DNA of 64,000 nucleotides from Neodothiora populina (taxonomy: Eukaryota). Below the pieces are notes generated by a model. That model was not told the DNA's origin and ran no database searches. It saw nothing but the letters and a program-made list of their open reading frames with translations. This document shows positions 60,583-62,581 of the stretch, in pieces. Position numbers and translations under genes: made by a program. The first letter of the stretch is position 1, and every line of letters begins with the position of its first letter. The stretch covers positions 620,001 through 684,000 of the forward strand of contig NW_027191414.1 in NCBI RefSeq assembly GCF_041146345.1, read 5' to 3'.

Positions 60583-62581
60583 CTAGAATGCGACTTCGTG
60601 GCCCTCGCCTACGACAGACATACCATCGACGAGGCTGGCTTCTGTTGCAGCGGCAGTCTCAGCGGTGACTTTCTCTAGCATCTTTGCGCTTGCAGCGATG
60701 AATCCGAGGTAAGGTCTGCTTGGGTCGAGCACGCGCGACATGTACTCCGGGTGGAATTGTACACCAACAAACCAAGGGTGATCCTTCTGCTCGATGATCT
60801 CCATCCTGACACCAGTTTCGTCTTTGCCGATGAATGTGAGACCCTTCTTCTCAAGGGCGGGAATGTGCTTGGGGTTGACCTCGTAGCGGTGGCGATGACG
60901 CTCGAGGATTTGCGACGACTGCGTGCCGTACAATGCGCGGAGCTTACTCCACTCGGTGTCTGGTTGCCACACAGTCGGACGGAGGCCCAGACGCATGGTG
61001 CCGCCTAGCTTGCCGGTGTGGTGCTCTGGCATAGAGATGATGAGACGGTCTTCGTCCCTGGCATCGAATTCTGCAGAGGAAGCCACCGGCAATGGAATGC
61101 CGCAGACATTGCGTGCAAACTCGATGACAGCGATCTGCATGCCGAGGCAAATACCGAGATAGGGTGTTCCGTTCTCACGAGCCCACTTCGCGGCTGAAAC
61201 CATGCCCTCAGTACCTCTGGAACCAAATCCTCCTGGTACAAGGATTCCAGATGCTGTGCACACATCGTGCCATGCCTTGTGGTAGCCAGCAGGGTTGGAT
61301 TTCTCCGTCTGCGGCTCCAAGTGTTCGGAATCGACCCAGATGATCTTGAGCTTCCTCTTGCAGCGCATAGCGGCGTGCTCGACACTCTTCACGACACTCA
61401 AATAGCTGTCCGGTTGCTCGAGGTATTTTCCAACGAGAGCAATTTCGACGGTCTCATAGACACGCTCCAAGCCTAAAGCAAGATCCTTCCAGGTTTCCCA
61501 GATCTGGGCGCCCTTGGCGGAAAGAGTTGGGTTGATCGAGACCTGGTCAAGGCGAAGGACGTCACTGAACAATTTCACCAGACCTTGGTCTTCGAGAAGC
61601 AAGGGGACTTGATATGTGCTAGGCATGTCTCTGACAGCCAGAACCTGGTCAACAGGAACTTGACAGAAACGGGCGATCTTGGTGTGCGCAGCGGGATCAA
61701 GAGGGCCTCGCAGCGGCAGGCGATCAAGTCAGGAATAAGACCGGCACTGCGGACAGCCTTGATGGCCATTTGTGTAGGTTTGGTCTTTTGCTCACCGTGC
61801 ACCATAGGCACGTAGCTGACGTGGACCTGCATGAAATTGTTCCTTCCAGCCCGACCTCGAAGCTGCGTGAGGGCCTCAACGAATGGCATACTCTCGATAT
61901 CTCCGACTGTGCCACCCAGTTCGATGATGCAGACGTCGGGCTCCTCGCCGGTTCCATCTACAGGAATCTTGGCAACGCGTTCGATCCAGTCTTGGATGGC
62001 GTCGGTGATGTGTGGGACGACCTGGACAGTGTGGCCGAGGTAATCGCCTCTTCGCTCTTTCTCAATAACGTGCTGGTAAATCTTTCCGGTGGTGATGTTG
62101 TTGTCACGCGTGAGGGTAATGTTGAGGTAACGCTCGTAGTTGCCCAGATCGAGGTCGACTTCGCCGCCGTCATCCAGTACAAAACATTCGCCATGCCTTT
62201 GATTGGAGATCAGAATGGATATGAAATGTGACGCCGAGGCAATGGCAGCACATACTCCTTAGGATTCATTGTTCCGGCATCCACGTTCAGATAAGGGTCG
62301 ATCTTGATTGAAGAGACGTGCACAAGAGGTCAGCGGATGGCGATGCGCGCATTTTTGAAGTGAAAACATATCTTAAGACCCATAGTCTTGAGTAGCAGGC
62401 CGGTCGACGAGGCTTCAGCACGTCAATACTTTGTTGCATATTCCGAGTGATATAGAATAAAAAAGCATACCAATGATGCCTTTGCCAACGCCGCTGATAA
62501 CACCTGTTTGACGATCAGAAAAGCCATGTAGACCACATGGGAACATTACAACATACCTCCGGATACCAGAACATACTTCAT
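60583..62581 (-). CDS. URA7: CTP synthase; exons 62581-62557, 62503-62471, 62412-62372, 62317-62256, 62196-60583; third intron is AT-AC; 1-nt frameshift near 61704
   Basis: [94 protein letters not shown] and QFHPE. Confidence 0.95.

Follow-up and report, generated by a model that had tools for sequence, protein, structure and literature searches.

A widespread AT-AC intron with U2-type signals in the CTP synthase gene of Neodothiora populina and other filamentous ascomycetes

How is an intron that begins with AT and ends with AC removed in a fungus belonging to a lineage for which U12 splicing has been reported absent (Ascomycota; PMC2846911), and why would such ends have been kept? The question is raised by a stretch of 64,000 nucleotides of Neodothiora populina (NCBI RefSeq assembly GCF_041146345.1, contig NW_027191414.1, positions 620,001 to 684,000 of the forward strand), here called the window, whose first letter is position 1 of all the coordinates that follow. 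On its minus strand lies a CTP synthase gene of five exons, which runs from an ATG at 62581..62579 to a stop codon at 60585-60583. Its third intron, as read in the sequence, is a phase-0 intron of 54 nt at 62371..62318 (-), placed between the codons for GLK and VSS and with the form ATATGT...CTGAC...CAC. A preliminary description, made from the letters of the window, had taken this element for an obligatory AT-AC intron carrying signals of the major spliceosome, and both its coordinates and its sequence are exactly as claimed there. The explanation that in our opinion accounts best for the data, and which we hold with considerable confidence, is that of a genuine and constitutively removed U2-type (type II) AT-AC intron, located in the URA7-type, single-copy-looking CTP synthase gene of a dothideomycete.

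Direct evidence of its removal comes from public sequencing runs. Parts of the gene were found in four of them, all as assembled contigs and none listed as RNA, and were compared with the window over 60400-62900. The runs X2 and X1, the latter being the probable source run, share one sample, and the library type of X2 is not on record (it is guessed to be DNA). Record 4 of X2 is a contig of 2056 nt and depth 28.8 that reads along the gene strand and is devoid of exactly four pieces, which are the four predicted introns. At intron 3, the joint 62317/62372 skips 54 nt bounded by GT..AT on the plus strand, that is, by AT..AC in the sense of the gene; the joint is free of letters that could belong to either side, and the shorter side is 41 letters long. 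Since a copy free of all four introns to the base descends from spliced RNA, the junction holds whatever the library type, and intron 3 is removed precisely at the predicted AT..AC junction. The contigs of X1 contain the unspliced form only, covering the intron with 0 differences. In turn, a 204-nt contig of depth 3.2 from X4, a run of another study and with another organism label, matches 62275-62403 with 0 differences and continues into unlike sequence beyond 62403, thus giving weak, independent DNA support for both odd ends.

Other ways of splicing this intron were also considered. According to a script that went through every donor and acceptor pair in the window, no GT-AG or GC-AG pair restores the conserved peptide at intron 3, in agreement with the failure of the GT..AG alternatives tried in the preliminary description, and the same script does find GT-AG solutions for the three neighboring introns of the gene. 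A junction GT..CT, four bases off, would lead to GLKISS...; it is ruled out in the window by the unambiguous joint of the X2 contig. The parts of the gene are the following:

62582..62610, minus strand: 5′ untranslated part in the spliced contig, whose match ends at 62610, 29 nt upstream of the ATG
62557..62581, minus strand: exon 1, with its edge set by the X2 joint
62504..62556, minus strand: intron 1, 53 nt, GT-AG (X2 joint 62501/62555, cut +2; skipped piece 62502-62554)
62471..62503, minus strand: exon 2, from the sequence, its translation and the X2 contig
62413..62470, minus strand: intron 2, 58 nt, GT-AG (X2 joint 62412/62471)
62372..62412, minus strand: exon 3, from the sequence, its translation and the X2 contig
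62318..62371, minus strand: intron 3, 54 nt, phase 0, AT..AC ends, skipped exactly by the X2 spliced contig and present in the X1 and X4 DNA contigs with 0 differences
62366..62371, minus strand: 5′ splice site ATATGT of intron 3, a U2-type GTATGT with A at +1, read in the sequence
62329..62333, minus strand: CTGAC, putative branch-site motif of intron 3, whose presumed branch A (62330) lies 12 nt from the 3′ end
62332..62330, minus strand: TGA, the in-frame stop met upon retention of intron 3 (open reading frame 62330..62422)
62318..62320, minus strand: 3′ splice site CAC of intron 3, a YAG with the last G changed to C, from the sequence and the X2 contig
62256..62317, minus strand: exon 4, whose last codon is split, from the sequence, its translation and the X2 contig
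62197..62255, minus strand: intron 4, 59 nt, GT-AG (X2 joint 62195/62255, cut +1; skipped piece 62196-62254)
60583..62196, minus strand: coding part of exon 5, with the rest of CTP_synth_N and the GATase domain, from the translation and Pfam

The excision of all four introns yields the conserved N-terminus of CTP synthase, and that of intron 3 in particular joins ...MGLK to VSSIKIDPY. The first part of exon 5 matches the Pfam family PF06418 (CTP_synth_N, E 1.2e-73), and the second part comprises the end of PF06418 and PF00117 (GATase, E 1.1e-39). This order, CTP_synth_N followed by a class-I glutamine amidotransferase, is that of the URA7/PyrG type of CTP synthase, the name that the homologues bear. 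At its 5′ end, the spliced contig continues past 62610 with 24 unrelated letters; they look like a nanopore adapter, a resemblance to which no weight is given.

Is the odd pair of ends a peculiarity of this genome? The GLK|VSS junction was located in each of 80 metagenomic fungal loci fetched with the first 163 residues of exon 5; the junctions were derived from the conserved protein, and the script took GT-AG whenever such a solution existed. An AT..AC intron occupies the junction in 49 of the 80 loci (46 called by the script and three, L017, L045 and L047, by eye), a GT..AG intron in a single one (L005), and no intron in the remaining 30 (25 by the script and five by eye). The introns of the 49 AT..AC loci amount to 35 different sequences, of 49-84 nt and all at the same phase-0 position, so that the loci are not copies of one contig. 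The recurrence of AT..AC ends at one position in this proportion of the loci is not due to chance. As for the flanking introns, those that could be solved have GT-AG solutions, apart from one GC-AG intron (the first of the gene in L055), a canonical appearance that is partly explained by the preference of the script for GT-AG. The comparison of orthologs that the preliminary description had put forward as a check thus finds the AT..AC ends conserved. Its characterization of the element as a rare U2-type AT-AC intron is right with respect to introns in general, and does not apply to this position.

The fungi involved can be named with the help of protein searches and of a tree. The two proteins nearest to that of the window show 91% and 87% identity over the C-terminal query, and the nearest relative 94% over 502 tree columns; the nearest named proteins, with the C-terminal query, belong to Dothideomycetes sp. 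(78%) and Aureobasidium (76%). By protein search, the locus L013 is closest to Bipolaris and Parastagonospora (Pleosporales), and L070 is 99% identical to P0231, named Exophiala xenobiotica / Lithohypha guttulata (Chaetothyriales). The tree is a quick, unrooted, maximum-likelihood tree of this single gene, obtained by a short search on 103 rows, from which six loci with fewer than 350 residues covered were excluded. AT-AC loci group in it with Aureobasidium pullulans and A. melanogenum (L001-L004), beside Myriangium and Elsinoe (Myriangiales; L007), within the Pleosporales (about 20 loci, with Bipolaris, Didymella and Parastagonospora) and next to Verruconis (L027), and likewise next to Thermoascus (Eurotiales; L059 and L061), with Knufia and Lithohypha (L060, L062, L070 and L078) and with Exophiala (Chaetothyriales; L032). 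Further AT-AC clades are formed by L051/52, L071/74, L072/75, L064 and L031/33; in the Protein Atlas, L071 and L051 matched bacterial CTP synthase clusters only. The clade of Teratosphaeria and Polychaeton has no intron at the site, as is also the case of the outgroup-like loci, and L005, the GT-AG locus, is nested within a group of relatives that have either AT-AC or no intron. The tree, with 75 scored rows, requires at least seven state changes. Altogether, this intron normally has AT-AC ends in two fungal classes or more, and such ends are not peculiar to the genome of the window.

Two side observations arose from the same data. Three proteins named as Xylariomycetidae or Neoarthrinium, and hence Sordariomycetes by name (P0213, P0218 and P0225), adjoin Botryosphaeria and Phyllosticta in the dothideomycete part of the tree, with a support of 99. 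In addition, many relatives (L013:2475-2610, L070:2478-2540, L060, L071, L064) have an extra short intron after ...PDL[IV], at a point within the uninterrupted exon 5 of the window gene.

Regarding the splice signals, the 36 distinct AT-AC introns (the 35 from the loci and that of the window) were compared with 89 distinct GT-AG or GC-AG introns that are their neighbors in the same genes. The AT-AC donor hexamers are ATAAGT and ATATGT (15 each), ATAGGT (3), ATAAGG, ATACGT and ATTAGT (one each), and the last three bases are CAC (26), TAC (6) or AAC (4), mirroring YAG. GT is present at +5/+6 in 35 of the 36, versus 44 of the 89 neighbors. A CTRAY branch motif occurs in 36/36 (CTGAC in 32, CTAAC in 3 and CTGAT in 1) against 60/89, a difference for which the Fisher test, ignoring shared ancestry, gives p 1.3e-5. 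The distance from the branch A to the 3′ end is 9-13 nt in all 36, as compared with 9-47 nt in the neighbors. A U12 donor or branch motif is found in 0/36 and 0/89, respectively: none of the AT-AC introns has the donor ATATCC(TT) or the branch motif TCCTTAAC (scored as TCCTT[AG]A), CTRAY being present instead, so that the absence of U12 signals noticed in the preliminary description extends to the whole set. The AT..AC ends, a 5′ site of U2 type except at +1 and the precise removal are the attributes of the U2-type (type II) AT-AC class. Indeed, but for its two terminal bases the intron could serve as a model of the U2 type, with its other signals nearer to the optimum than those of its neighbors, as expected if stronger remaining signals compensate for weak ends.

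How would such an intron be handled by the major spliceosome? Judging by its signals, U1 and U6 would read the 5′ site through positions +2 to +6 (TATGT), and U2 would pair with CTGAC. For the second step, A(+1) and C(-1) would take the place of the usual G-G pair in a non-Watson-Crick contact, and it is by virtue of this A-C contact that the AC located 12 nt past the branch A would be used as the 3′ site. The removal of the intron is obligatory: the nucleotide-binding region at the N-terminus of the enzyme is encoded by exons 1-3, and a retained intron brings in a stop, the in-frame TGA already pointed out in the preliminary description.

In historical terms, the AT-AC state appears to be old: it would go back at least to the ancestor that Dothideomycetes and Eurotiomycetes share, and several losses and one change to GT-AG would have followed. 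As the tree is unrooted, the direction of change is deduced from nesting. The most likely reason for the persistence of this state is an evolutionary trap, in which either of the single reversions, to GT..AC or to AT..AG, would cripple the splicing of an essential gene; with both of them damaging, escape would be feasible only through the loss of the intron or through a rare double change. The cost of the trap would be that the remaining signals are held near their optimum. Furthermore, at least seven state changes, with many losses among them, suggest that the intron is dispensable as such, which fits a trap better than a needed regulator.

A point of the window that bears on the quality of this gene copy, overlooked in the preliminary description, is a one-base break of the frame at 61703-61705. 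The coding sequence changes frame at the C-run 61703..61705 (-), between ...ACRCEA and PLDPAAH..., where the window is one base short; the X2 spliced contig has one extra base there (a G inserted behind 61702 on the plus strand), and the relative P0003 reads ...CRCEAPLD... across the run. The shortfall is probably a run-length error of the assembly, the alternative being a real indel in the strain. Elsewhere in the window, at 63157-64000 on the plus strand, the translations of the frames 63157-63591 and 63634-63999 read like two exons of a candidate aldo-keto reductase gene.

Could AT and AC be sequencing or assembly errors, or else the mutated splice sites of a dying pseudogene? The frame break would be in favor of it, as it implies that either the assembly is not error-free or the copy is damaged. 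However, it falls in a base run at which the spliced contig has an additional base, and the same contig removes exactly 62318..62371; the X4 contig, an independent one, has identical letters, other fungi show AT..AC at the same position in 49/80 loci, and the protein, with its full Pfam domains, is otherwise 91% (C-terminal query) or 94% (502 tree columns) identical to that of its nearest relative. An origin in error or decay is hence hardly credible, and the sequencing error that the preliminary description had judged unlikely is excluded by the independent DNA contig together with the loci. It is also highly improbable that the intron is of U12 type and depends on a minor spliceosome for its removal. 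That type is classically recognized by its AT-AC ends, and the intron shares with it the short distance from branch to 3′ end as well, the 12 nt observed here being suitable for U12 introns. Nevertheless, equally short distances occur in the neighboring GT-AG introns, the donor is ATATGT rather than ATATCC, the U12 branch motif is missing from all 36 distinct introns, and the host lineage is reported to be without the minor spliceosome: the absence of U12 splicing in Ascomycota and Pezizomycotina, for the latter of which the preliminary description had appealed to it, is what PMC2846911 states. An unlikely variant, though less improbable than these two, considers the intron as the survivor of an ancestral AT-AC intron of U12 type, whose signals would have drifted to U2 type after the minor spliceosome was lost toward Dikarya, the AT..AC ends remaining locked in because both one-step intermediates would be lethal for an essential gene. 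No full-text article pairing CTPS2 with U12-type introns was found, and CTPS1, CTPS2 and CTP synthase do not figure in the supplements of two surveys of minor introns (PMC11347168, PMC10639083), in files that may not list genes and so provide no evidence. If true, this variant would turn the intron into a datable fossil of the conversion from minor to major introns in fungi, and into a natural system for the choice of a non-AG 3′ site by the major spliceosome according to the distance from a strong branch point.

A different kind of explanation assigns a function to the ends themselves. CTP synthase is a tightly controlled enzyme, and a slow or leaky intron with AT-AC ends might have been selected to set its level, with the retained transcripts meeting a stop and being degraded. 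The stop upon retention in the window would agree with this proposal, which comes from the preliminary description, and so would the great age of the AT-AC state and the tight conservation of the flanking signals. Against it, the intron has been lost in 30/80 loci, including whole clades such as that of Teratosphaeria and Polychaeton, and has become GT-AG in one lineage, at least seven state changes being required in all. Moreover, the length is a multiple of three in only 14 of the 36 distinct AT-AC introns; the others would shift the frame if retained, so that an in-frame stop is nothing special. No retention was seen, in contigs that are blind to its level, and the authors who described such introns in Botrytis found no special role for the genes that carry them (PMC10971195, section 3.7). 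Such a throttle through retention and nonsense-mediated decay is unsupported, and we regard it as unlikely.

The U2-type reading has its own weak points, which must be set against it. The spliced form is known from one contig of one run, made from the same sample as the probable source and not recorded as RNA, and the independent DNA consists of the one X4 contig, of 204 nt and depth 3.2, which diverges past 62403. The junctions in the 80 loci come from protein conservation and not from cDNA, with three AT-AC calls and five calls of no intron made by eye. Near-duplicate and related loci make the counts and the Fisher test overstate independence, and the taxon names depend on a single-gene tree with a short search. 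The dependence on U1, U2, U4 and U6, and not on U11, U12, U4atac and U6atac, is what we infer from the signals and from the reported absence of U12 splicing in Ascomycota (PMC2846911), and the branch point and the A-C contact are equally putative. Finally, the trap model is an argument, and strong signals could have been conserved for a selected regulatory function as well.

The U2-type AT-AC II introns, whose 5′ site resembles ATAAGT, are already recognized as a class (PMC1557818, PMC5029451), and what is added here is that this member is ancient and widespread. One survey counted 15 U2-type AT-AC introns in human, 6 in mouse and 3 in fly, with two experimentally proven and with fungal xylanase genes under suspicion (PMC1557818). 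In fungi, AT-AC introns constituted about 0.03% of the predicted introns of one annotation study (PMC4084796), and they have been described as rarer than CT-AC artefacts in fungal annotation (PMC7072748). Like the animal introns of SCN4A and SCN5A, that of CTP synthase has AT..AC ends and an ATAAGT-like 5′ site, and in both cases the ends have long been conserved over distant species at a very low overall frequency (PMC1557818). Unlike them, it belongs to a housekeeping enzyme gene of filamentous ascomycetes, reported to be without a minor spliceosome, its length is 49-84 nt, and a CTRAY branch site invariably precedes the 3′ end by 9-13 nt; the dependence on the major spliceosome is experimental for SCN4A and SCN5A (PMC1557818), and is deduced for the fungal intron.

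A second parallel is the engineered AT-AC intron that was spliced in yeast (Parker and Siliciano, 1993, as cited in PMC5029451 and 10.1101/212811). That double mutant has the same pair of changes with respect to GTATGT...YAG, the change of the first G to A being rescued by that of the last G to C, and the pairing between first and last nucleotides is explained by the P-complex structure, in a paper stating that AU..AC could be tolerated (10.1101/212811). The yeast AT..AC intron is a laboratory construct, whereas that of CTP synthase is natural, fixed and ancient.

The closest precedent is found in Botrytis fabae (Leotiomycetes), also a filamentous ascomycete, where CTP synthase is among 16 genes with non-canonical introns supported by RNA-seq, six of which have ATANGT 5′ borders (PMC10971195). 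The text of that paper names the gene without position or ends, and the intron is likely identical to the one described here. The same work lists another conserved gene with a non-canonical intron, that of the vacuolar ATP synthase subunit E (PMC10971195), which may be a second conserved AT-AC case. Section 3.7 of that article mentions neither conservation across classes nor failures of annotation, and no paper on the cross-class conservation of this intron or on its effect on gene models was found among open-access papers and preprints; a match to PMC3091305 proved to be false, as it concerned KS-AT-ACP domain strings.

The consequences for gene models are visible in the databases. A set of 29 named public models of CTP synthase was picked by hand, partly for their odd lengths, so that its proportions are not free of bias. 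Fourteen of these models are intact, and 15 show truncation or scrambling either at the GLK|VSS junction or upstream of it. Among the broken ones are those of Aureobasidium, Parastagonospora, Didymella, Botryosphaeria and Exophiala dermatitidis: the model of A. melanogenum reads GLKICIDPY, that of A. pullulans has a foreign N-terminus, and others begin with MNPKEHGE. For A. pullulans, Parastagonospora, Didymella and the Lithohypha/Exophiala protein, near-identical metagenomic DNA has the AT-AC intron where the model breaks. The intron thus accounts for a systematic annotation error in fungal CTP synthase, and gene finders allowing AT-AC at conserved positions would mend the model of an essential gene in many fungal genomes.

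Beyond annotation, these fungi, in which the minor spliceosome is reported to be missing, would offer the major one a natural and ancient AT-AC substrate that is spliced constitutively. The comparative data suggest which compensators such a substrate would need, namely GT at +5/+6, a perfect branch motif and a distance of 9-13 nt between the branch and the 3′ end. In this sense, the CTP synthase intron would illustrate a two-mutation trap, by which a non-canonical state may have been held since the split of two fungal classes.

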